Origin: Bdellovibrionia bacterium | Lineage (GTDB): Bacteria > Bdellovibrionota > UBA1018 | Direction: 5' to 3' | DNA length: 11,902 bases | Assembly: GCA_045805065.1 (NCBI GenBank) | Contig: JBJMMA010000038.1 | Span: forward strand, 1 to 11,902 | Shown here: in pieces, positions 2-11,625 of the stretch | How the letters are laid out: every line of letters starts with the position of its first letter | Position numbering within the stretch: position 1 is the first letter of the stretch | Position numbers and translations under genes: made by a program | Notes under the pieces: generated by a model | What the model was told of the DNA's origin: nothing | What the model saw: only the letters and a program-made list of their open reading frames with translations | The model's database searches: none

Positions 2-562
2 AAGAGAGTTCGCAAACTCATCCTGGTTGCGCCCTATGTGATCCGACTCGACCAAGCGCAGCTGGTTCAAAGACTCTGGGCAGGCCAGATTGAGTTGATG
101 AGAGGGATGGGTCTCTTTCCTGGCTCAAGCTTTGAGATCGCCCAGAAATGGTACAATCAGTTTCTCAATCACTACATGCACCATCGTTTCCAAAAGGTCA
201 TTCCAGACGAAACGGTCAGAAAAGCCTGTATTCAGCTCACGTTTGGAATCATGAACTTCAATGCCTTTCCGCTATTCAAATCGCTTCCTGAATCCAGCGT
301 GCATCTGATTTCAGGCGCCCGCGACACCCTTGTGCCTCAAGGGCTTTATTCTGAGGTGTGGTCCAAGCTTCCTCGGAACGCGAAGGCAAGCTGGCTTTGC
401 GTTGAAGACGGGGAGCATCTGCTTTTAGAGCAGTACCCAAACTACCTGGCTTCCTGGATCGAGCGCGTATTAAAAGGCGATCCGAGGGTGATGCAGGGTC
501 AAAAAATTAACGGTCGAGGCTACTCTTTTGAATTTGGCCAGACTGGCGAGTTCAATCTCTAG
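2..562 (+). CDS. Alpha/beta-hydrolase fold protein, 5'-truncated by the window edge
   Basis: The frame is open from base 2 (KRVRKLILVAPYVIRLD...). It shows the RVRKLILVAP strand that follows the nucleophile elbow, the acid motif HLISGARDTLVP and the His motif VEDGEHLLLEQYP. The nucleophile elbow lies upstream of the window. Confidence 0.85.
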   Translation, partial: KRVRKLILVAPYVIRLDQAQLVQRLWAGQIELMRGMGLFPGSSFEIAQKWYNQFLNHYMHHRFQKVIPDETVRKACIQLTFGIMNFNAFPLFKSLPESSVHLISGARDTLVPQGLYSEVWSKLPRNAKASWLCVEDGEHLLLEQYPNYLASWIERVLKGDPRVMQGQKINGRGYSFEFGQTGEFNL

Positions 563-642
563 TTCTTTCATTACATAAAGCTATTTTAGTAGATAAGTTA
601 TAATTCAGACTCCATAAATCAGGGCGTTTTGCCGATCAAAAG

Positions 643-3600
643 ATGATGCGTCCTGCGCTCGTCTTAAAACTGTTCAGCAAAGCGATCTTACCGAGAGGTT
701 TGCTCCTTCTCGCGCTTGCCTTTGCGTCGCTCTCTGCATGGGCGAGTGGTCTATCGCTTTCTCAGCCCTTCGATGCCTTAAAAGAGTTCCCCAACTACTT
801 TCTTCCGAAAGAGTATCGCGGCCGACAGACTTCTGACATCCCAGCCGATGTCATAAAAAAACAGCGTGAACTCCTGGACCAGGCTCTGGGCTCAGTGTTT
901 GAGCGACTCGTCGTGCCTATTGTTCCTGAGGGCGAAAAAGGAATCAGACAAGTTCGTTATTTCCCTTATCTCAGGGAGCGGCTGCTTCGTGTGGATCCTG
1001 GAATGAAGCTCTATGCAAGCGGTGGCGTGGTTCGAACGGCGCTGTCCTATGTCTATGATGAAGTTTTTCAGGCGCTGGAGATGGATCCGAAAAAAGATGC
1101 CGCACAGGTTCTCAAGAAGATCGCCGAGAGCAAGGAAGATTTGCCAGCGATTCGAGTGAGGGGTGTTGGCAGTGACTTTGACATGCTTGTTCAATCTTCC
1201 AATGGACAGACCCACCAGCTTCAAGCACTTGCAACTCAGATTACAAACAGCGCATCTGAAGCAAGCGGCGCGAAACTTTCAAACTATTCCGTACAAAACG
1301 CGTTCTTCACCTTAGGGGACGTTCGAGATTATAATTCCCAGATTGAGCGCTCCACGCGCCAAGGGGGATCGGTCGTCGACTATCTGGCATTTGAGCTTGG
1401 TACAAAGACACTCAAGGAACCGCCCCGCTTTCCAGGTTTAGTGGAAAGGATTGTGTCTGGCCACTACGAGTTTGCGCCTCCGGCTCAGGGAGCCGCACCT
1501 GAGGATCTAGGGGATTCGGTCATTCGTGGAGCTCGAACCTTGTTGGAGTTGCCGTGGCTTAAGCTCGAAAATGAGAAATACTATCGAGAACAGGTGCAGG
1601 CGCTGAACGAGAGTTTGAGTAAGGGCCAGGCGCTTTCAAAGCGCGCCATGGGACAATTTGCCAAGGGTATTCGTAATTCACGCTATTTCGGTGCACATAA
1701 TCGTTTTTATCGCGCAAATTCTGACACGGCTGAAGCAGACATCTTGAAGCTTGCCTCCCGACTTGCGAACGGAAACGTATCGACGCTCCTGCCCGAGTTT
1801 GCTGATGCAAGAAAGATCGAGATTCGATCAGGTGACCGCTCAGAACTCAATGGATTGCCTAAAGAGCTTTTAACTCCGGTGTCCGAGTTCAAGGCAAAGT
1901 ACACGGACAAAGGCGTACTTCATCATGGTACGCCTTCCATCGAGAATGCTCTTGCCATTATGAGGCAAGGTCTTTTCTTGAGTAAGAATGGCCAGGGAAC
2001 AGCACTCTACGGCAGGGGCGTATACTCATCTCCAGATCGCAAAATTTCGGAGGGATATGCGGGTGATAAAGGTATCATCTTTGACCTGCAGATCAAAGAT
2101 GATCCACGCTTGAATATCCTGAACTGGGAAAAAGTCGCGAATCATCCCGCCATTCAGAAGATCAAGAGGGAAGCGGGCAAACAGGGCCGGGATGTCTTTG
2201 AGTACCTCTCGCGCGAGCATGGCATCGATATCATCAAGAACCATCACGTGTTGATTCAGAACTCGGATGCCGTCGCACTTCCTGGCGGACTTAAGGCGAT
2301 TGCTCAATCGATTGCTTATGAGCTTGTTCACGACAAAAAAGTGAATTTGGACAATTTCATGCAGATTCTGCCGCTCAATGATTATCTTGAGCGCATCGGC
2401 GAGAGCTCGCCACTCGATCAGGGCCAATGGCAAAAAGTATATGCATCGCTCACAGATGAGATCGTAACAAAAAGTGGCGGCTCAAAGTCTTTCAAGGCGT
2501 TTTCGAATGATTCGGCAGTGACATTTGTTCGCGATGTCATCCTGACCGGAAAGTTCACTCCTGATCAAAGCACCTTGGTTTCCTTGGCTAAAGCCTTTTT
2601 GGAGGGAGACAAGGAGTCCTACTTTTACAAGGGCACTGAACTGGGAGTAGACCTCATCCGGCTTATCCACGATGGGGCCGATCGTGAACACCTGATTGTG
2701 ACGGCACTGAGTGCCGCAAAGTCAACGGTGCAAGCTAGAGCTTTGTCATTGATTGATTGGGGTACGCCACAGGCTCAGAAATACGATCAAGCTCTCGGGC
2801 AGGCTCTCCTGCGAGGCGACGCTAATGGATTTCTTGACAAGTTGAGCGCAGCTTATAAGAGACCTCCTGATTCTCAGAAAAAGATCTATGACTCCGCAAT
2901 ACAATCTGCTCTTCAATCGATTCGGAAGGACAAAAAGTACGTCCCTTCCAGAGATCTCGCGCTTGTCGGGTTTGTCAGACATGTGATCCTGTCCAAGAAG
3001 TACGTCGCAAATCAAAGTGAAATAGCCGCTTTTGCGTACGCGTTTCTGGAGGGGGATAAAGAGTATTATCACATCGAGGGCAACGAACTCGGGGCGCAGC
3101 TGATTCCATTGATTGAGGATAAAGATGTGCGCGCGGATCTTCTTCAGCGAGCGTTCAGTTCCAAGAAGCATCGGCTCCAATCAGCGGCTCTTGAGATGAT
3201 TGATTGGAGCTCGCCTCAGGTCCGTGAATATGATCAAGTACTTGGGAAGACCCTTCTCTTGGGAGATAGTGAAAGTCAGTCTGAGAAGTTGAAGGCTGCT
3301 TTCCTTAGACCTGCCGAATCCCAGAATAAGATCTTTGAAGTTGCAAACCAGAATGCTCTCCGTCAGATCCGCGAAAACAAGGAATACGTCGCTCCTCAGG
3401 ATGCTGCCCTGGTGAATTTTGCCAAGAAGGTGATCCTTTCCAAAAAGCTGATTCCAAGGCAGAGCGATCTTGTTACTCTGGCTCACGTGTTCCTGGATGG
3501 AGATAAGGAATATTATTTTAACGAAGGGACAGGCTTGGGTGCGCGCCTGATTCCTTTGATCGAAAATCAGGCTGAGCGTGAAAGGCTGATGGAACGTGCG

Positions 3601-5040
3601 TTGAGTTCCAAGAAGCCTCAGCTCCAGCAAGCCGCACTTGAAACGGTTAATTGGGGCGCTCCCCAGGCTCAGGAATATGATCAAGTTCTTGGGAAGACAC
3701 TTCTATTAGGAGACGGCGATGGTCCCTCGGAGAAGTTGAAAGCGACACTACAAAGGCCTGCACAGTCGCAGCAAAAGATCTTTGAGATCGCGACTCAGAA
3801 TGCCTTGCGCGAGATCCGCGAAAACAAGAAATACGCTGCTTATGAGGATGTCGCTCTCGTACAGTTCACGAAGCAAGTGATCCTTTCCAAAAAGCTGATT
3901 CCAAGGCAGAGCGACCTGGTTACTCTGGCTCGCGCGTTCCTGGACGGTGATAAGGAACACTATTTTAAAGAAGGCACGGGTCTGGGTGCGCGCCTGATTC
4001 CTTTGATCGAAGATAAGAATGTGCGTGAGGAACTTCTTGAGCGGTCGTTAAGTTCCAGGAAGTATGACCTCCAGAAGGCCGCCCTTGAAAAAGTCGATTG
4101 GAGTTCACCTCAGGCCCGTGAATACGATCAAGTTCTAGGGAAGACTCTTCTCTTGGGACATAGTGAAAGTCAGTCTGAAAAGTTGAAAGCGACGTTACAA
4201 AGGCCTGCACAATCACAGCAAAAGATCTTTGAGATCGCGACTCAGAATGCCCTGCGCGAAATCCGCGAAAACAAGAAATACTCTGCCCATGAGGATGCGG
4301 CTCTCGTGCAGTTTACGAAGAATGTGATTTTATCCAAAACGCAGGTTCCAAGGCAGAGCGATCTTGTTACTCTGGCTCACGCGTTCCTGGACGGTGATAA
4401 GGAACACTATTTTAAAGAAGGCACGGGTCTGGGTGCGCGCCTGATTCCTTTGATCGAAGATCAGGCTGAGCGTGAAAGTCTCTTGGAACGTGCGTTAAGC
4501 TCCGAGAAGCCTCAGCTCCAGCAAGCCGCACTTGAACAGGTAGATTGGAGCTCGCCTCAGGCCCGTGAATACGATCGCACCCTGGTGAAAAACCTGTTCG
4601 CAGGCGGGAATTGGGATGTCGAAGCGAAAGTCAGACTGATCAAAAAGCAACCTGCTGATGTTCAGCCCGCGCTGTTCAAGGAAGCTTTTGAGGCAAGCTT
4701 GAACAATCCGAATACCAACGAATCCATGGCCCGAGTTTTCCTGGGCGAATTGCAGAAAGCCGGCATCTTTCAGCCTGACTCAAAGCTTTTGGAAGCGATC
4801 ATGGCAAAGCATCTCAGGCCAGGCGACAGGGATTCCGCTCGCGAGAAGGCCCTCCAGGACTTGAAAGAAGCGGTTAACCGTGGTGATGCGTGGGCCATCA
4901 GTGCAGCAAAGTCGTATGTGTCGGATTCCGGCGTGCCTCGATTGGAGAGAAATCGAGTCGCCAAGATGCTGCCATCGCTTAATCTCAAAGCCGATCATTG
5001 CGTGATCATGTATATGAAACGGTTGTTCGGCAAACAATAA
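643..5040 (+). CDS. Large exported multidomain protein: signal peptide, CCA/poly(A)-polymerase-like nucleotidyltransferase, PARP-like ADP-ribosyltransferase, 5 x 149-aa repeats, Cys-containing C-terminal tail
   Basis: 1465-aa ORF with signal peptide ending LSAWA (aa 34). NTase motifs: LYASGGVVRT (aa 123-132), SDFDMLV (aa 177-183) and EDLGDSVIRGAR (aa 287-298, cf. EDPLRILRAxR). ART motifs: LHHGT (H428), LYGRGVYSS (Y461), SEGYA (Y472) and GIDII..HHVLIQN. There is no clear SD, so the start could be 643 or 646. Confidence 0.85.
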   Translation: MMRPALVLKLFSKAILPRGLLLLALAFASLSAWASGLSLSQPFDALKEFPNYFLPKEYRGRQTSDIPADVIKKQRELLDQALGSVFERLVVPIVPEGEKGIRQVRYFPYLRERLLRVDPGMKLYASGGVVRTALSYVYDEVFQALEMDPKKDAAQVLKKIAESKEDLPAIRVRGVGSDFDMLVQSSNGQTHQLQALATQITNSASEASGAKLSNYSVQNAFFTLGDVRDYNSQIERSTRQGGSVVDYLAFELGTKTLKEPPRFPGLVERIVSGHYEFAPPAQGAAPEDLGDSVIRGARTLLELPWLKLENEKYYREQVQALNESLSKGQALSKRAMGQFAKGIRNSRYFGAHNRFYRANSDTAEADILKLASRLANGNVSTLLPEFADARKIEIRSGDRSELNGLPKELLTPVSEFKAKYTDKGVLHHGTPSIENALAIMRQGLFLSKNGQGTALYGRGVYSSPDRKISEGYAGDKGIIFDLQIKDDPRLNILNWEKVANHPAIQKIKREAGKQGRDVFEYLSREHGIDIIKNHHVLIQNSDAVALPGGLKAIAQSIAYELVHDKKVNLDNFMQILPLNDYLERIGESSPLDQGQWQKVYASLTDEIVTKSGGSKSFKAFSNDSAVTFVRDVILTGKFTPDQSTLVSLAKAFLEGDKESYFYKGTELGVDLIRLIHDGADREHLIVTALSAAKSTVQARALSLIDWGTPQAQKYDQALGQALLRGDANGFLDKLSAAYKRPPDSQKKIYDSAIQSALQSIRKDKKYVPSRDLALVGFVRHVILSKKYVANQSEIAAFAYAFLEGDKEYYHIEGNELGAQLIPLIEDKDVRADLLQRAFSSKKHRLQSAALEMIDWSSPQVREYDQVLGKTLLLGDSESQSEKLKAAFLRPAESQNKIFEVANQNALRQIRENKEYVAPQDAALVNFAKKVILSKKLIPRQSDLVTLAHVFLDGDKEYYFNEGTGLGARLIPLIENQAERERLMERALSSKKPQLQQAALETVNWGAPQAQEYDQVLGKTLLLGDGDGPSEKLKATLQRPAQSQQKIFEIATQNALREIRENKKYAAYEDVALVQFTKQVILSKKLIPRQSDLVTLARAFLDGDKEHYFKEGTGLGARLIPLIEDKNVREELLERSLSSRKYDLQKAALEKVDWSSPQAREYDQVLGKTLLLGHSESQSEKLKATLQRPAQSQQKIFEIATQNALREIRENKKYSAHEDAALVQFTKNVILSKTQVPRQSDLVTLAHAFLDGDKEHYFKEGTGLGARLIPLIEDQAERESLLERALSSEKPQLQQAALEQVDWSSPQAREYDRTLVKNLFAGGNWDVEAKVRLIKKQPADVQPALFKEAFEASLNNPNTNESMARVFLGELQKAGIFQPDSKLLEAIMAKHLRPGDRDSAREKALQDLKEAVNRGDAWAISAAKSYVSDSGVPRLERNRVAKMLPSLNLKADHCVIMYMKRLFGKQ
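2506..4710 (+). repeat. Intragenic tandem repeat: 5 units of 447 bp (149 aa), last unit degenerate at its 3' end
   Basis: The Phe codon of FL(E/D)GDKE falls at 2596, 3043, 3490, 3937 and 4384, exactly 447 bp apart. Units start at about 2506, 2953, 3400, 3847 and 4294. Confidence 0.97.
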
Positions 5041-5068
5041 TTTGACGGTCAGCGCTCTACGGCAAGTC

Positions 5069-5096
5069 TAAGATCTCTTTAGTTTAATGCCGATAA
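5069..5096 (+). promoter_or_regulatory. Putative sigma28 (FliA) promoter
   Basis: TAAG-N16-GCCGATAA. The -10 matches the consensus perfectly (TAAA-N15-GCCGATAA), and the -35 context TCTAAGAT.TC is shared with the promoter at 10435-10461. Confidence 0.65.
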
Positions 5097-5107
5097 TGAG
5101 GTGATAG

Positions 5108-5161
5108 AGATCGCTCAAAGCTGATCATTGCGTGAAGGCTTACATTAAGAGACTCTTCTAA
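5108..5161 (+). pseudogene. Orphan 3'-end fragment paralogous to the C-terminus of the 1465-aa protein (RSLKADHCVKAYIKRLF*)
   Basis: 5114-5135 matches 4984-5005 at 21/22 nt. It translates as LKADHCVKAYIKRLF* versus LKADHCVIMYMKRLFGKQ*. In-frame TGA TAG at 5102-5107 precede it and there is no usable start. Confidence 0.75.
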
Positions 5162-5235
5162 GCGCAGTAAGCATCTGCAGGCGCATTTTTCCTCATTTCT
5201 CGTCCGCTTATCACCGAAAAGCAGGTGAGGGAATC

Positions 5236-6663
5236 ATGAGAAAAAGCCTTGTAATCGCAGGACTGTTTGCTGCTTTGAGTTTCACGCTCTTTCAGTCTTA
5301 TGAGCTCAAGCGCCCATGCCTTGAGAAGCCGTGGGGGGCGCCTCAGCGTCTCGAGTATCGCAACCTCTGCTACAACGATGTTCAGGCTTTGTATGGCGTA
5401 AGAAAGCTCGATCAGCGCGCCATCCCTTATATCGAAGAGAAAAGTTATGAGTATCCTGTTCTCATGGGAATGAGCATGTGGGCCACGTCGCTCTTTGCGC
5501 ATGATCATGTGGAGTACTTCAAGGCTAATGTGCCGCTTCTCGCCTTTATGGCGATTCTCTCGCTGGCGGGTCTTTGGGGAGCGATCGGACTGCGCCGCGA
5601 GCTTCTTTGGTTTGCCATTGGAACTCCGACCTTGTTTTACGCCTTTTTGAACTGGGATCTGATTCCGGTTGCTTGCGTCTGTATTGCCATGTGGGCCTGG
5701 TCTCGAGAGCGCATAGCCGCAAGTGGAGCAGCGCTAGGGCTTGGTGTTGCAGCCAAGATTTATCCTGGCTTTCTTCTGCCTTCATTGATGATTGCGCTTT
5801 GGCGGAAGGCGGATCATCAGGAGCAAAGAACGAAGAAAGTGGCTCGCTTGCTCGCAGGATTTTCCGGAGCCTGGCTTGCTGCAAATCTTCCTGTGCTCAT
5901 TGCCGAGTACGCCAAGACAGGCGCTGTCGACGGATGGCTTTCCGTATTCAGCTTTCATGCAAAGCGCGCGTCAGACTTTGGAACCGTCTGGTATTGGTTG
6001 TACCGTTTTTCGACGGATGATTTTCCAACCTATCTTGCGACCTTGCCAGCCATTGTTGCGGGTGCAAGTGCCGCTTGGGTTGCAGCGCAGAAAAGATACG
6101 GCTCGATTCGATTGCCTTTGGCCGCAGCTTTGAGCGTTCTCACAATCACTTTGATGGTTTTCGCTCACATGATCGAAGGGATTGCTTTAGGCGAAGACTT
6201 CCGCGGAATCGTGGATCATTGCTCCGAGTTTCTCTTTGCCTCAGGAACGATCGCTCTTTTGTTTTCGCAATGGAAGCGCGGGAATGATTCATGGGCTACG
6301 GGCGCAGGAATTCTGGCGCTCTATCTCGCAGTCAGCAAGATTCATTCACCACAACATGCGCTTTGGGTTTTGCCTTTGATGCTTTCGGTGCGAGTCCCTT
6401 TGTCTACGCGCGTAGGCTACTTGCTCGGTGACGCTTTCGTATTTGCGGGCGGGTTTACCTGGTTTGCCACGTCTCCTGAAATGCAGTTCAATTTCTGGCA
6501 GGTCGTTTTTATCGCTGGAGTCTTTGTGAGAGCGGGCTTCCTGCTTCGCTTCTCCGCTCAGTGTGCTTTGGGCGCTCCGAGTTTGATGCAAGGCAAGCGC
6601 ACTGAAAAGTTTGCCGGAGAAGTCAGTACGGCTTTAGTTCACGAGACATCGGCTGCCGCTTAA
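5236..6663 (+). CDS. GT-C fold membrane glycosyltransferase, GT87/DUF2029-like (polyprenol-phosphate-sugar dependent)
   Basis: Multi-TM 475-aa protein with motifs LCYNDV..LY, PY....YEYPVL, FLNWDL, LGLGVAAKIYP and SKIHSPQHALW, all typical of the family. SD GAGGGA precedes ATG 5236. Confidence 0.85.
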   Translation: MRKSLVIAGLFAALSFTLFQSYELKRPCLEKPWGAPQRLEYRNLCYNDVQALYGVRKLDQRAIPYIEEKSYEYPVLMGMSMWATSLFAHDHVEYFKANVPLLAFMAILSLAGLWGAIGLRRELLWFAIGTPTLFYAFLNWDLIPVACVCIAMWAWSRERIAASGAALGLGVAAKIYPGFLLPSLMIALWRKADHQEQRTKKVARLLAGFSGAWLAANLPVLIAEYAKTGAVDGWLSVFSFHAKRASDFGTVWYWLYRFSTDDFPTYLATLPAIVAGASAAWVAAQKRYGSIRLPLAAALSVLTITLMVFAHMIEGIALGEDFRGIVDHCSEFLFASGTIALLFSQWKRGNDSWATGAGILALYLAVSKIHSPQHALWVLPLMLSVRVPLSTRVGYLLGDAFVFAGGFTWFATSPEMQFNFWQVVFIAGVFVRAGFLLRFSAQCALGAPSLMQGKRTEKFAGEVSTALVHETSAAA

Positions 6664-6767: not shown

Positions 6768-7673
6768 TCAGTACAGGCAAGATGCGACAGAGCTTCCACC
6801 GCTGGTGGTCGAGCGATCTTCGACTGGTACTTGCGCAGGTGCTGGCTGGGAGTAGGACTCAGAAGAAGAGTTATAGTTCGACTCAGTCATGGAATCTCCG
6901 CATCCGCCGGATGCGCAACCCGATGGGACGCGGTTAACTTCTCCGCTAGCGCTGCCCGTGCTGCTGCTGCGGCTGCTGGAGGAGTTGGATCTGGACTCTT
7001 CGTAGTAGCTCGAGGACGAGGAGCCGCTACCCGAGTTAGACACGACAGCTTTGGACTCGTACGAAGTTCTCACGCCTGCTGGCATGTCGCGAGGGACGGT
7101 GCCTGCGTAGATCTGGGATTTCTTGAGTTCGTTTTCCATGCAGTTGAGCTGAAGGGTTTCTTCGTCAAACTGAGCTTTTCTGGAGCGAACTGCGAGGTCA
7201 CGCTGCTCTTCGCTCTTTCCGCCTCTGAACCAGCTGAAGAGACCGCCGATTGCAGCACCGATTGCGGCGCCAACCAGCGCCATGCCACCCGTGACAACGG
7301 TGAGCGCCGCGCCGGCAACTGCGCCTACAGCTGCGCTGCCAACAGGTTTTTCTGCGAAGGTCTCTGCGTGCTTGAAGCGAAGGTCATTATATTTTTCTTG
7401 AAGGACCTGGTGATCCATTCCCGCGTAAGCTCGACAGGTGTAGTTCTCGGAGTCATCACGAACAATATCCGTTGCTCTGACTTGTCGGCTTTGAATATCG
7501 GTCACAACACGTTGTTGGGGAACCATTACGGTCTCGACGCGCTTGACTGGAACTTGAACGTCGGCACTGCGGTCTTGAAGACGAATGTCAGCCCAGGCGC
7601 GGCTGGAAGCAATGCTCGTCATGGCGATGGAAGTGATCAGGGTAATAGCAATTTGGCGTTGATAGTTTCTCAT
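6768..7673 (-). CDS. Secreted glycine-zipper protein with Ser-rich tail (301 aa), function unknown
   Basis: Start re-assigned to ATG 7673 on the basis of SD AGAGGAG. Signal peptide ends SRAWA. Glycine zipper GSAAVGAVAGAALTVVTGGMALVGAAIGAAIGGLFSWF lies at 7227-7340. The C-terminus is Ser-rich low-complexity sequence ending SCLY. Confidence 0.8.
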   Translation of the reverse strand: MRNYQRQIAITLITSIAMTSIASSRAWADIRLQDRSADVQVPVKRVETVMVPQQRVVTDIQSRQVRATDIVRDDSENYTCRAYAGMDHQVLQEKYNDLRFKHAETFAEKPVGSAAVGAVAGAALTVVTGGMALVGAAIGAAIGGLFSWFRGGKSEEQRDLAVRSRKAQFDEETLQLNCMENELKKSQIYAGTVPRDMPAGVRTSYESKAVVSNSGSGSSSSSYYEESRSNSSSSRSSSTGSASGEVNRVPSGCASGGCGDSMTESNYNSSSESYSQPAPAQVPVEDRSTTSGGSSVASCLY

Positions 7674-7709
7674 AGTTTCTCCTCTAGATTTATCGACACA
7701 CTGAATCAT

Positions 7710-7725
7710 TGCAAGCGAGGGGCCA
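7710..7725 (-). promoter_or_regulatory. Putative sigma54 (-24/-12) promoter of the glycine-zipper gene
   Basis: The - strand reads TGGCCC-CTCGC-TTGCA, matching TGGCAC-N5-TTGCW with exact GG-N10-GC spacing, about 37 nt upstream of the ATG. Confidence 0.7.
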
Positions 7726-7826
7726 GAATGGCCCTTGAGGAAAAACAGGGATTTAGCCGAAAAATCTGCCTAAACTTTGAGCAGGTGAAAAGTAAGGTAT
7801 CTATACACAGAGACTAAATAGCGTGC

Positions 7827-8220: not shown

Positions 8221-9462
8221 TTAGTGAAGCAGATACTGAAGAGTATTCGCCCACTCAGAGCCGTGCTGGAATGCGAGATCGCTGTAGATCTGCGCATTGC
8301 TGTCATAATAGTTCATGCTGGTTGGGAGCCAGAAGGAGATCCCGTTGGCTTTCTTAGACCAGCTTGAGGTGACAGCGTTGACTACCAGGTACTGGCTGAC
8401 AGCCGTACGAACCTGAGCCGTCACAGCGCGGTTCACGTTGAGGCGTTGGGCATCAACACGGTTCAGGAAGTCGATCAAATCGCCGTAGTCGTCATAGGTG
8501 AATTTTGCAGTCGCTTCGGCTGCTGCAATGACCTTGGCGCGGCTTGCGTTGTCGAGCTTCATCATTTCAGCGCCCAGTGCGCGGATCGATTGCTCGAACA
8601 TGTCTGAGCGGCTCAAGTCATAGGCTGATGCCGTGACTTCTTGCGTGCCGTTGCTTCCGCGTTGATAGCTCTTGGTATACTCTGTGACGATCAATGCAGC
8701 GACATCGCGTGGATTCATGCTGCGAGTGCCCCAGCGTGCGAAGATCTGGTCGTATGGCCAGCCTGCACCTGGCTCAAGGTCCTGAGAGCCAACGAAGTAC
8801 TGAACGGAGTTCTTCATTTCAGAAGCAACTTCTGCCATTGCCATCAAGCAAGCATCGCTGCCGTAGACGTCGATCTTATGACCGATTGCTTGTGCGCCGC
8901 GAGCCAGAGCCATTCCAAGCTCTTTCGTGGTGATGTGGTGGCCGGAGAAATCATCCCAGCTGATATCCGTTGGGTGGAAGATGTTGTCGCCGCCAAATTC
9001 GGTTGCATGCAGTGCGTGCCAGCCGCTGCCATGGTCCCATACGTCGACAAGATAATGTTGAGCAGGGTAGGTCTTGGCACCCCATGCGATGAAATCAGCT
9101 AGGCTTTGCCAATCACCCATGTCAACGCGTCCAATTTCTTGAACGACTGGAGAAGTAACTTTCTTCTTATCGTTATCTCTTTTAATCAGAAGACGTTGAG
9201 CTTTGCCCTTTGAATAACTCGCCCATTGGACAACGATGTTGATCTTATCGGAGGAGCCCACCATTTCCATCTGGTTCAGGTTCATCGAGCCAAAGCTGTC
9301 GAGATTGTTATTGCCGTTGAGATAGACCAGGAAGGTCCATTCTTTCGGAGCGTTCGGGCCGGCGTGAGGATTCGTGTGAGCGGCGGCTTGTGCGTTACCT
9401 GTAAATGCCGCGGCGGTGATCAGTAAAAGACTGCACAGCAGGGATGAAATTTTTTCTCGCAT
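8221..9462 (-). CDS. Secreted clostripain-family (peptidase C11) cysteine peptidase, 413 aa
   Basis: Motifs KEWTFLVYLNGNNNL, YPAQHYLVDVWDHGSGW (catalytic His), DVYGSDACLMAMAEVA (catalytic Cys) and EPGAGWPY. Start re-assigned to ATG 9462 (SD GGAGG), followed by a signal peptide ending NAQA. Confidence 0.92.
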   Translation of the reverse strand: MREKISSLLCSLLLITAAAFTGNAQAAAHTNPHAGPNAPKEWTFLVYLNGNNNLDSFGSMNLNQMEMVGSSDKINIVVQWASYSKGKAQRLLIKRDNDKKKVTSPVVQEIGRVDMGDWQSLADFIAWGAKTYPAQHYLVDVWDHGSGWHALHATEFGGDNIFHPTDISWDDFSGHHITTKELGMALARGAQAIGHKIDVYGSDACLMAMAEVASEMKNSVQYFVGSQDLEPGAGWPYDQIFARWGTRSMNPRDVAALIVTEYTKSYQRGSNGTQEVTASAYDLSRSDMFEQSIRALGAEMMKLDNASRAKVIAAAEATAKFTYDDYGDLIDFLNRVDAQRLNVNRAVTAQVRTAVSQYLVVNAVTSSWSKKANGISFWLPTSMNYYDSNAQIYSDLAFQHGSEWANTLQYLLH

Positions 9463-9673
9463 TCGGCTCCTCCATGAGTTTGCAAGATTGTATTTTTTAC
9501 TGCTTAGGTACTGCTTGTACTGCGATGGTGAGCCGCGCCGCTTCCTAGCGTAGGTCATGGCGGATTCGCGTCAGTTCTTTCAAATCCACCCACCATGGCG
9601 GATTTTCAGACCGGTGCGATCCCGTTGTGACGAGGTCATTAAGTTGTGCTGCTCAAGGAAGAGGTTAGCATGA

Positions 9674-10434: not shown

Positions 10435-10461
10435 TTATCGGTGCGCGGAGGGGATATCTTA
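10435..10461 (-). promoter_or_regulatory. Putative sigma28 (FliA) promoter of the lipoprotein gene
   Basis: The - strand reads TAAG-N15-ACCGATAA, about 40 nt upstream of ATG 10396. The -35 overlaps the helicase stop codon. Confidence 0.65.
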
Positions 10462-11625
10462 GAGCTTTGACTCATGATCGAGGAGCGATGTGCAGAAGTC
10501 GCATAGATCGCAAAGACTTGATGCGCCGTGTTCACAAAAATAAGAGCGCAGCGATGCTCTGCGGCAAGCGCTTTGAATTAAAAAATTTTGCACATCGTGA
10601 AGCTCTTGCAGTCTGCGTGCGGAGCCTTGCGTCATCCACTGAAGAAGTCGAAAGTCTTCTTCATCCCAAAAGATCAGAGCTCGCGACTTAAGATGAGGAT
10701 GCCGTCCCGCGCGACCAATCGATTGCGCAAGCGATAACAGGGACGGCGGTGCTTGCCAGAGTAACGCCCAGCGAAGATGAGGATGATCCATTCCCATACC
10801 AAAGGCGGATGTCGCAATGACGATCTCAGGCTGATGCTCTTCAATTTGATTTTCGATGATTCGGCGCTCTTCGCTCGACATACCTGCGTGATAAACCGCG
10901 CACCGCTTACCCGTAGCTTTTAGAAGAAGAGATAGCCTCTCGGCAGTCGCTCGTGTTTGCACAAAGAGAATCCCCGCATCTTTTTGAGTGAGGACAAATT
11001 CAAGAAGGCGTTGGGTTCTTTGCGGCCAAGGAACTCTTTGAACCGAAAGATGCAAAGTCGGTGGAAGTCCAAATTCTCCCATCTCTCGGATAGGAGCGGG
11101 AAGCTCATGCCGAAGTTCCTCGCGAGCAAGCTTTGGAAGAGTGGCACTCAGCCAAACGCTTCTTGGGATTGAGTGCTCTTTTAGAAACTTCGGGATTTGT
11201 AGAAAAGACGGGCGAAACTTCTCTCCCCAGTCCCATAGACAATGGCACTCATCCACGGCAAGCAGTGAGGGTTTCCATGCTGCAGCTTTTTGCGAAGACA
11301 AAGGATGCGCGAGTCGTTCCGGACTGATGATCCAGACTCCGGTCTTGGCCTGAGGCGGAGGCATAGGGTCAGGGCCTGCGGCAAGAGTCACGGGAATTCC
11401 AAGACGCGTGAGTTTTAGGTGTTGCTGTCTGGCTAGCGCAACCAGCGGTGTTACGAGAAGCACTCGGTGATTGCGTGCATAAGTCTCGTAAATCAGGCTT
11501 TTTCCTGACCCAGTGGGCGCGATACAAATCAAATGGCCTGGCTCGCGAAGGGCTTCTAAGGCCTCCTTTTGAAAAGGCCTGAGCTCAAATGGCCTACTTG
11601 AATCAAGAGATGATTGAGCAAACAT
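10459..11625 (-). CDS. recQ: RecQ-family SF2 DNA helicase, short form (helicase core plus Zn-binding subdomain)
   Basis: Motifs LRPFQKEA (motif 0), APTGSGKS (I), AVDECHCLWDWGEKFRPSF (II plus aromatic loop), SAT (III), YHAGM, VIATSAFGMGMD (V), QSIGRAGR (VI) and CRR...CDLCDFC (Zn). The protein ends just after the Zn site. Confidence 0.9.
   Translation of the reverse strand: MFAQSSLDSSRPFELRPFQKEALEALREPGHLICIAPTGSGKSLIYETYARNHRVLLVTPLVALARQQHLKLTRLGIPVTLAAGPDPMPPPQAKTGVWIISPERLAHPLSSQKAAAWKPSLLAVDECHCLWDWGEKFRPSFLQIPKFLKEHSIPRSVWLSATLPKLAREELRHELPAPIREMGEFGLPPTLHLSVQRVPWPQRTQRLLEFVLTQKDAGILFVQTRATAERLSLLLKATGKRCAVYHAGMSSEERRIIENQIEEHQPEIVIATSAFGMGMDHPHLRWALLWQAPPSLLSLAQSIGRAGRHPHLKSRALIFWDEEDFRLLQWMTQGSARRLQELHDVQNFLIQSACRRASLRSYFCEHGASSLCDLCDFCTSLLDHESKL

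Follow-up and report, generated by a model that had tools for sequence, protein, structure and literature searches.

We identified a duplicated protein end in the window, by which we mean the whole stretch of DNA analysed here, i.e., the entire 11,902-nucleotide (nt) contig C38 of our own Bdellovibrionia genome G000 (a bin of 4.22 Mb in 262 contigs with 52% G+C). The gene of the large, putatively exported protein P0001 ends in LKADHCVIMYMKRLFGKQ and a stop codon, and the intergenic DNA behind it re-encodes, at 5114–5161, LKADHCVKAYIKRLF with a TAA of its own. Judging from sequence comparisons, we consider it about an even bet (probability roughly 0.5) that this orphan tail is all that remains of a second gene with such a tail, which would have been located between the P0001 gene and the gene of a GT87-like membrane protein and would have had its own FliA-type promoter. 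The region comprises the following features.

643–5040, forward strand, P0001 gene, 1465 amino acids (aa), with signal-peptide-like N-terminus, nucleotidyltransferase and PARP-like domains, repeats, and cysteine (Cys) tail
4984–5005, forward strand, core repeat copy 1, codons LKADHCV plus 1 nt, within the P0001 gene
5006–5040, forward strand, distal part of tail 1 (IMYMKRLFGKQ) and stop, resembling the MinD membrane tag
5041–5113, forward strand, spacer of 73 nt, unique in the genome, carrying a predicted promoter and a candidate relic start
5068–5096, forward strand, predicted FliA (sigma-28) attack-phase-type promoter CTAAG-N17-CCGATA, with CTAAG at 5068–5072 and CCGATA at 5090–5095
5101–5124, forward strand, candidate GTG start of the putative lost gene, now a 7-codon frame MIEIAQS followed by a stop
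5114–5135, forward strand, core repeat copy 2, from the repeat search
5114–5161, forward strand, orphan tail, startless, with TGA TAG ahead in frame
5162–5170, forward strand, A-Q-stop continuation of the orphan frame, aligned with K-Q-stop of P0001

Sequence conservation of the orphan tail

The orphan consists of 16 codons without a start codon and is in the +1 frame relative to the P0001 gene. Over a longer stretch the C-terminus of P0001 reads LNLKADHCVIMYMKRLFGKQ and a stop, and the orphan frame within the 195-nt gap before the next gene reads MR-stop-stop-RSLKADHCVKAYIKRLF-stop-AQ-stop. The two leading stops (TGA TAG, 5102–5107) directly precede the orphan in its own frame, so that it is unreachable by read-through. 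The two copies of the 22-nt core are identical at 21 positions and have a start-to-start spacing of 130 nt. Past the core, identity is 11 of 23 nt across the distal tail and 5 of the following 12 nt, and the distal residues Y, K, R, L, and F are retained via different codons (TAT/TAC, AAA/AAG, CGG/AGA, TTG/CTC). A sequence-only reading of this DNA had described the re-encoded tail with its TAA, the near-identical 22 nt, these codon pairs, the in-frame stops, and a FliA-like promoter just upstream; all of them were recovered, the last as GCCGATAA at 5089–5096 together with the CTAAG listed above.

The P0001 tail aligned to the 195-nt gap with a best ungapped BLOSUM62 score of 64, whereas 2000 shuffles averaged 7.8 and reached 31 at most. 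Its distal eight residues alone scored 24; when the corresponding 24 nt were shuffled 5000 times, this value was reached once. The similarity between tail and orphan is far beyond chance. One of five distal codons is identical, which equals the saturation expectation under the codon usage of this genome, and at least six identical codons out of seven, as in the core, have P = 0.02 at saturation. Because the distal codons are saturated yet the residues were kept, both tails appear to have been under selection for a long time. This bears out the earlier argument for past protein-level selection instead of a recent DNA duplication, and the codon pattern indicates that the orphan, now dead, was at one time translated and subject to selection. 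Its frame continues as F-stop-AQ-stop where P0001 has FGKQ-stop, and given this alignment the first TAA of the orphan may be a later nonsense change.

A simple tandem duplication of 130 nt at the end of the P0001 gene, followed by drift, would yield a unit length equal to the observed spacing, and the spacer ends in a sequence that weakly resembles (12 of 15 nt) the ribosome-binding region of the GT87-like gene. We nevertheless regard this as hardly credible: a never-translated copy cannot retain residues through synonymous changes, so selection on both tails excludes such a duplicate, and the flanks align no better than shuffles, as the spacer shows no significant similarity to the sequence following the orphan (293 of 2000 shuffles score equally).

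The public runs holding the window sequence are soil metagenomes of a single study, and the evidence from them consists of low-depth contigs from four runs that leave the window partly uncovered. Contigs of runs X1–X3 match 4635–5047, 4987–5094, 5083–5246, and 5121–5312 with no differences and place tail 1, the spacer, the orphan, and the GT87-like gene in this order. As the runs are possibly the source samples, they support the sequence, but not independently of the source reads. No run contig skips the 130 nt, which at this depth is uninformative either way. An assembly chimera of the gene ends of two strains would be in line with the origin of the genome as a 262-contig metagenome bin, and tail 1 is joined to the orphan through two run contigs with an overlap of only 12 nt. 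Such a chimera is most improbable, as the two copies share no exact word of more than 13 nt, a length by which a de Bruijn assembler would not be misled, and separate run contigs bridge both junctions (5040/5041 and 5113/5114) without differences.

Further candidate explanations of the region were rejected. An RNA element at the orphan found no support, with no Rfam family at threshold (the sole match was SNORA61 with 17.8 bits, compared with a gathering score of 74), a z-score of 0.37 for the folding of 5030–5240, and no terminator called in a scan. One weak structure was noted there:

5162–5190, forward strand, weak hairpin (−8.2 kcal/mol) followed by AUUUUU, not called by the terminator scan

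A diversity-generating retroelement was dismissed since no reverse transcriptase family was detected in the window and the mismatches are not adenine-specific (of 20 copy differences, A is in the downstream copy in five and in the upstream copy in six). The spacer occurs once in the genome and was not considered a repeated or mobile element. On contig C80, HDHCVKA occurs by chance within a Cys-rich protein and accounts for a 19/20-nt match, and tail-like short frames on C98 and C142 are noise in alternative frames of other genes.

FliA-type promoters in the window and in related genes

In Bdellovibrio bacteriovorus, TTAAG-N16-CCGATA was reported for 92 of 140 attack-phase promoters and assigned to FliA (PMC3627812). 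The motif in the spacer matches this consensus at 4/5 and 6/6 bases with a spacer one base longer; it thus has the form of a FliA attack-phase promoter, with predicted activity, by a consensus from B. bacteriovorus that is applied here to a host of another family (Bacteriovoracaceae). Two more features are of relevance to its putative role.

631–638, forward strand, FliA-type −10-like element GCCGATCA, 4 nt before the ATG of the P0001 gene
5236–6663, forward strand, gene of a GT87-like membrane protein, 475 aa, with Shine-Dalgarno sequence AGGTGAG at 5223–5229

The GTG at 5101 sits 4 nt after GCCGATAA, the same spacing as at the P0001 start. The element CGAT[AC]A was found 4–11 nt before the ATG in all six related or tail-bearing genes examined, i.e., P0001, genes on contigs C177 and C46 of the sister species G001, on C21 of G036, and on C213 and C78 of G000. 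Likewise, CCGATAA or CCGATCA is located 2–11 nt before the start codons of many genes of G000 and relatives, for example at 631–645 of the window, at 2063–2083 of L013, on C78 and C213 of G000, and before eight further genes with a 2–8-nt gap among 19 listed. With the −10 element only 2–11 nt before the start codon, these positions suggest that sigma-28-dependent mRNAs are leaderless or nearly so. The promoters are thus akin to those of B. bacteriovorus in the spacer motif and in the element before the six related genes, but they belong to a different host family, and their −10 elements lie as close as 4–11 nt to the start codons.

Origin of the orphan tail

The product of the putative lost gene would have been exported and would have carried a tail of this kind; it would most likely have been a P0001 paralog. 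A single internal deletion, from about the fifth codon to 16–17 codons before the stop, would have left the promoter, the GTG, and the tail joined out of frame, and with such a junction none of the orphan tail would be made today. The near-identity of the 22 nt would go back to gene conversion between the neighbouring tails before the loss. The GT87-like gene now probably depends on the surviving promoter, which would drive it via a 5′ leader of ~130 nt containing the orphan.

Our preference for a deleted paralog is based on four points. First, a relative at 73–78% identity encodes three P0001 paralogs (P0003, P0004, and P0005) on one 413,193-nt contig, compared with one P0001-type gene in G000, where all own-genome matches are within C38. 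The tails of the three paralogs are LKAESCLIMNLKRFFKIR, LKAESCLIINLKRFFKFR, and NIKADHCVTLLLKRLF, each followed by a stop; two have the form LKAESCLI[IM]NLKRFFK[FI]R-stop, and the third, NIKADHCVTLLLKRLF (KADHCV...KRLF-stop), is orphan-like. Second, the sister species G001 shows the sequence of FliA promoter, exported protein, and GT87 in this slot: its GT87-like ortholog (68% identical) adjoins the gene of a 218-aa exported-looking protein that is preceded by TCCGATAA, 7 nt, and ATG. Where G001 has a FliA-driven exported-protein gene, G000 thus has only a promoter, a putative start codon, and a tail. Third, the promoter in the spacer looks native, as FliA-type control before the GT87-like gene in G001 argues against its import. 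Fourth, the tail of P0001 looks native as well; in an alignment to P0003, tail 1 matches 5/11 residues and the orphan 3/11, which places tail 1 slightly nearer to the tails of the long paralogs.

Several observations weigh against a deleted neighbour. Among the relatives searched, none was found to have an intact tail-bearing gene at this position, and the slot in G001 holds a different, unrelated gene. The codons after the GTG at 5101 (MIEI) are unlike a signal-peptide start, the resemblance between the spacer and the sequence ahead of P0001 is not significant (176 of 2000 shuffles score equally), and the identity of the core at 21/22 positions needs an extra event such as gene conversion, or luck (P = 0.02), and it is explained directly by the displacement scenario described below. 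At the DNA level, 4850–5240 matched itself alone in a comparison with 41 genomes, and the C-terminal 165 aa of P0001 had no match in G001, G036, G038, and G087. Two scans of a metagenome contig collection returned nothing; in a genome contig collection the strict tail pattern had no match and the alignment recovered one locus, the cut gene of the sister species. The synteny comparison proposed with the sequence-only reading thus yielded no intact gene, but another FliA-driven exported-protein gene at the site in G001. Its claim that the orphan is the scar of a paralogous gene accordingly keeps part of its force: the three paralogs of the relative and the form of the promoter, shared with six related genes, fit it, and a displaced tail of P0001 itself fits almost as well.

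According to the main rival reading, possible if doubtful, the orphan is the older tail of the P0001 gene, pushed out by an imported or templated 3′ end. The distal tail of a diverged homolog and its 73-nt 3′ flank, including the FliA promoter of the next gene, would have been copied in, starting within the 22-nt core and rejoining by microhomology (ATCG/CT) just before the core, which would have duplicated the core and shifted the old tail out of frame. One step would then account for a core with 21/22 identities and the sudden saturation behind it, since both cores would be native to the recipient. At polymorphic toxin loci, 3′ fragments are known that have been displaced and have a short conserved stretch in common with the full gene (PMC3482391). 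No donor was found in the assembly, where the spacer and tail 1 are single-copy, and the strict tail pattern had no match in two public collections. Moreover, it is tail 1, and not the orphan, that is nearer to the tails of the long paralogs, and G001 already has FliA-type control upstream of its GT87-like gene.

The element e14 integrates in the icd gene of Escherichia coli and supplies a substitute 3′ end, and the icd 3′ end is duplicated at the attachment site of e14 and phage 21. Here, too, an orphan gene end is located downstream and the copies differ mostly by protein-preserving changes, but there is no prophage or integrase among the eight large open reading frames (ORFs) of the window and the copies are 130 bp apart. 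A remnant of site-specific integration, in which an element with a substitute 3′ end entered at the core and later lost nearly all of its DNA, would explain the direct repeats flanking an insert that supplies a functional replacement tail. A 151-nt contig of run X2 is exact over 4987–5094 and has 43 unlike, A-rich letters before 4987, i.e., 3 nt inside the core, which would fit such a junction. This loose end is represented by one contig at a depth of ~3 and may be either a chimeric read or a real junction; an 18-nt motif taken from it is absent from genome G000. Integration is very unlikely, as an internal deletion down to just 130 bp must have spared both junctions exactly and Pfam detected no integrase or mobile-element family among the eight ORFs.

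Similarly low is our confidence in a silent spare tail. If the DNA from one 22-nt repeat to the other were lost, the orphan would be joined in frame to the P0001 gene, both cores starting on a codon boundary and the orphan retaining a clean 16-codon frame, and this one-way switch would change the membrane helix of P0001 and remove the downstream promoter. The homology available for it is only 22 nt with one mismatch, the orphan frame has a likely nonsense change (F-stop-AQ-stop), and orphans do not recur: no tail-like peptide above shuffles was detected within 249–600 nt downstream of six other tail-bearing genes. With no orphan tails at the six genes, a single-copy spacer, and no toxin or immunity cassette found, the earlier suggestion that the tail is a recombination handle for swapping cargo is not supported.

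Among known systems, bacterial pseudogene relics are similar in that a promoter and both gene ends would survive, out of frame and untranslated. The putative deletion is unusually clean by comparison, and the relic is recognisable only via the conserved tail on the upstream gene. The orphan C-terminal cassettes downstream of cdiA/rhs-type polymorphic toxin genes (PMC3482391) share with it a startless downstream 3′ fragment, a short shared stretch, and divergence beyond. The orphan differs from them in its 16 codons, in the absence of a toxin domain, an immunity gene, and a VENN or PxxxxDPxGL demarcation motif, and in being non-recurrent at six loci. An assignment to polymorphic-toxin orphan cassettes was thus rejected, the next gene being that of a GT87-like membrane protein.

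P0001 and its relatives

The N-terminus of P0001 looks signal-peptide-like, as judged by eye. No Pfam or NCBIfam family matches the protein. A structural model of residues 30–600, based on 28 family sequences, had a mean predicted local distance difference test score (pLDDT) of 89.4 and a predicted template modelling score (pTM) of 0.90. Its best Foldseek matches were CCA-adding enzymes (E 1.5e-3, probability 1.00), followed by weak matches to the catalytic domains of PARP1 (E 0.025–0.1). Residues G127, G128, D178, D180, H428, and Y461 are invariant or nearly so in the 28 sequences, H428 and Y461 being invariant. With G[GS] and DxD motifs and the predicted CCA-adding-enzyme-like fold, P0001 has the hallmarks of a pol-beta-type nucleotidyltransferase, and the model further suggests a PARP-like domain; the Pfam PARP model scored 23.2 bits on the paralog P0005, below the cut-off of 26.7. 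About 4.5 repeats of 149 aa follow the enzymatic half. At the DNA level, 2753–4639 of the window consists of 4–5 tandem 447-nt (149-aa) repeats with 60–79% identity, and paralogs vary in repeat number (991, 1314, and 1465 aa). The sole Cys of P0001, C1453, is located in the tail. A search of the protein collection with the C-terminal 176 aa recovered only P0001 itself.

Distribution and putative function of the Cys tail

The strict motif DHCxxxYxKRLF proposed with the sequence-only reading is confined to the two copies in G000 and had no match in two public DNA collections, but a looser tail is also present on a protein unrelated to P0001. The pattern C-[VLIA]-x2-[FYLMN]-[LMI]-x-[KR]-[LIF]-F has four matches in the 1.67 million residues of G000 ORFs of at least 150 aa, all at most five residues from the stop. 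With the fifth position freed, C-V-x3-[LMI]-x-[KR]-[LIF]-F ends five long ORFs of G000 and is never internal in long ORFs; its 16 six-frame matches comprise these five, the orphan, and ten short frames, a count that is descriptive because the looser pattern was drawn after the first extra tails had been seen. The five ORFs encode 275–1465 aa before the motif, which lies at most three residues from the stop. The pattern C-x3-4-hydrophobic-x2-LF of the earlier reading yielded the protein on contig C213 as the only real addition, and the short motif C-x2-hydrophobic-[FYLW] near C-termini showed no genome-wide excess (46 observed, 43 expected).

Three of the four other bearers (on C213, C9, and C222) form one family, P0030, with 766 representatives (E up to 0.001); the last 25 residues include a Cys in 130 of the best 150. 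In the P0001 family a Cys is within the last 28 residues of 22 of the 28 proteins and is the sole Cys in several. The two families aligned in hhalign with E = 1.2e-3 over 372 collinear columns at a probability of only 20%, and BLASTP between them was not significant; from the profile comparison the P0030 family appears to be a remote homolog of the P0001 family. Genes of the P0030 family are located at 5783–8317 on C213, 6053–7729 on C9, 5504–7732 on C222, and 37930–40863 on C106. Their products look like exported nucleotidyltransferase-like and PARP-like proteins in which 'SQPHWKDHPEW' helical repeats replace the 149-aa repeats, with a near-terminal Cys. The fourth bearer, P0031, is a protein of 286 aa with a signal-peptide-like start and the tail GCVIGFLRRIFTKR before its stop. 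It shares the tail only and has no relatives in the protein collection. The earlier proposal of a shared C-terminal signal is thus partly backed by the five long ORFs and by the frequent near-terminal Cys in both families, and is weakened by the fact that three of the four other bearers are remote homologs of P0001.

Across G000, Cys was over-represented at position 13 from the C-terminus (in 77 of 3804 non-overlapping ORFs, ~44 expected), and several large Cys-poor proteins, e.g., on C7, C95, C126, C202, and C247, end in a Cys and a helix-like stretch of ~12 residues.

The C-terminal membrane-targeting sequence of E. coli MinD is KGFLKRLFGG (PMC5471200). The tails have the same succession of two hydrophobic residues, K-R-L-F, and in some cases G at the extreme C-terminus (YMKRLFGKQ, YIKRLF, LLKRLF, FLRRIF, SIKRIFGK), i.e., they conform to the MinD-type amphipathic motif, and membrane binding is predicted from this likeness. 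In contrast to MinD, a conserved Cys always precedes the motif, and the proteins have signal-peptide-like N-termini and would thus act outside the cytoplasm. Hydrophobic moments of the tails are moderate (0.27–0.74). MYXO-CTERM-type sorting signals likewise place a conserved Cys, often the sole one, near the C-terminus of exported proteins, but a transmembrane helix and a Gly-Cys motif are both absent here. The number of residues after the Cys is 9–12 in the tails of the window and 2–20 across the family, too few for a membrane helix, so that the tails do not have the composition of a tripartite Cys signal. We read the tail as a putative helix by which exported proteins would bind membranes, with a conserved Cys that this does not explain; none of the evidence demonstrates sorting or translocation by it.

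A more far-reaching proposal, which we consider improbable, is that the Cys and MinD-like helix form a portable address tag, kept by selection, for FliA-controlled exported predation enzymes, with the orphan as a re-attachable spare variant. Nucleotidyltransferase-PARP-like proteins, and one or more unrelated ones, would be fastened by such a tag to a membrane beyond the cytoplasm of the predator, and the conserved Cys would be lipidated, cleaved, or captured in a disulfide. Loss of 130 nt between the two core repeats would then re-attach the orphan to the P0001 gene and also shut off the glycosyltransferase-like gene behind it.

As such, the orphan is a commonplace outcome of gene loss; the tail, itself of moderate interest, and the FliA promoters with their short leaders are by-products that attract more interest. 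As a natural marker, the orphan identifies the last 15 residues as a unit preserved by selection independent of codon choice. Near-terminal Cys tails run through two large, apparently remotely related families of putatively exported nucleotidyltransferase-PARP-like proteins of predatory Bdellovibrionota, neither of which has a Pfam or NCBIfam match at the curated cut-off. A limited literature search for C-terminal cysteines or secreted ADP-ribosyltransferases or nucleotidyltransferases of Bdellovibrio found neither the family nor the tail. Together with the MinD-like tail on proteins predicted to leave the cytoplasm and FliA-type promoters 4–11 nt before start codons, these points bear on how predatory bacteria may place enzymes on or in their prey.

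Neighbouring genes

The 218-aa protein of G001 has no match in G000. Upstream of its gene are ORFs named Fic-like and ArgR-like from their sequences, and the ORF upstream of the P0001 gene in the window (2–562) has no match in G001 or G022. Downstream of the GT87-like gene, two long ORFs at 6768–7709 (reverse strand) and 6831–7817 (forward strand) overlap almost fully on opposite strands; the former has weak glycine-zipper and OmpA-like lipoprotein matches below the cut-offs. They are followed by genes of a clostripain-family (C11) peptidase (8221–9558, reverse strand, E 1e-48) and a RecQ-like helicase (10459–11625, reverse strand).

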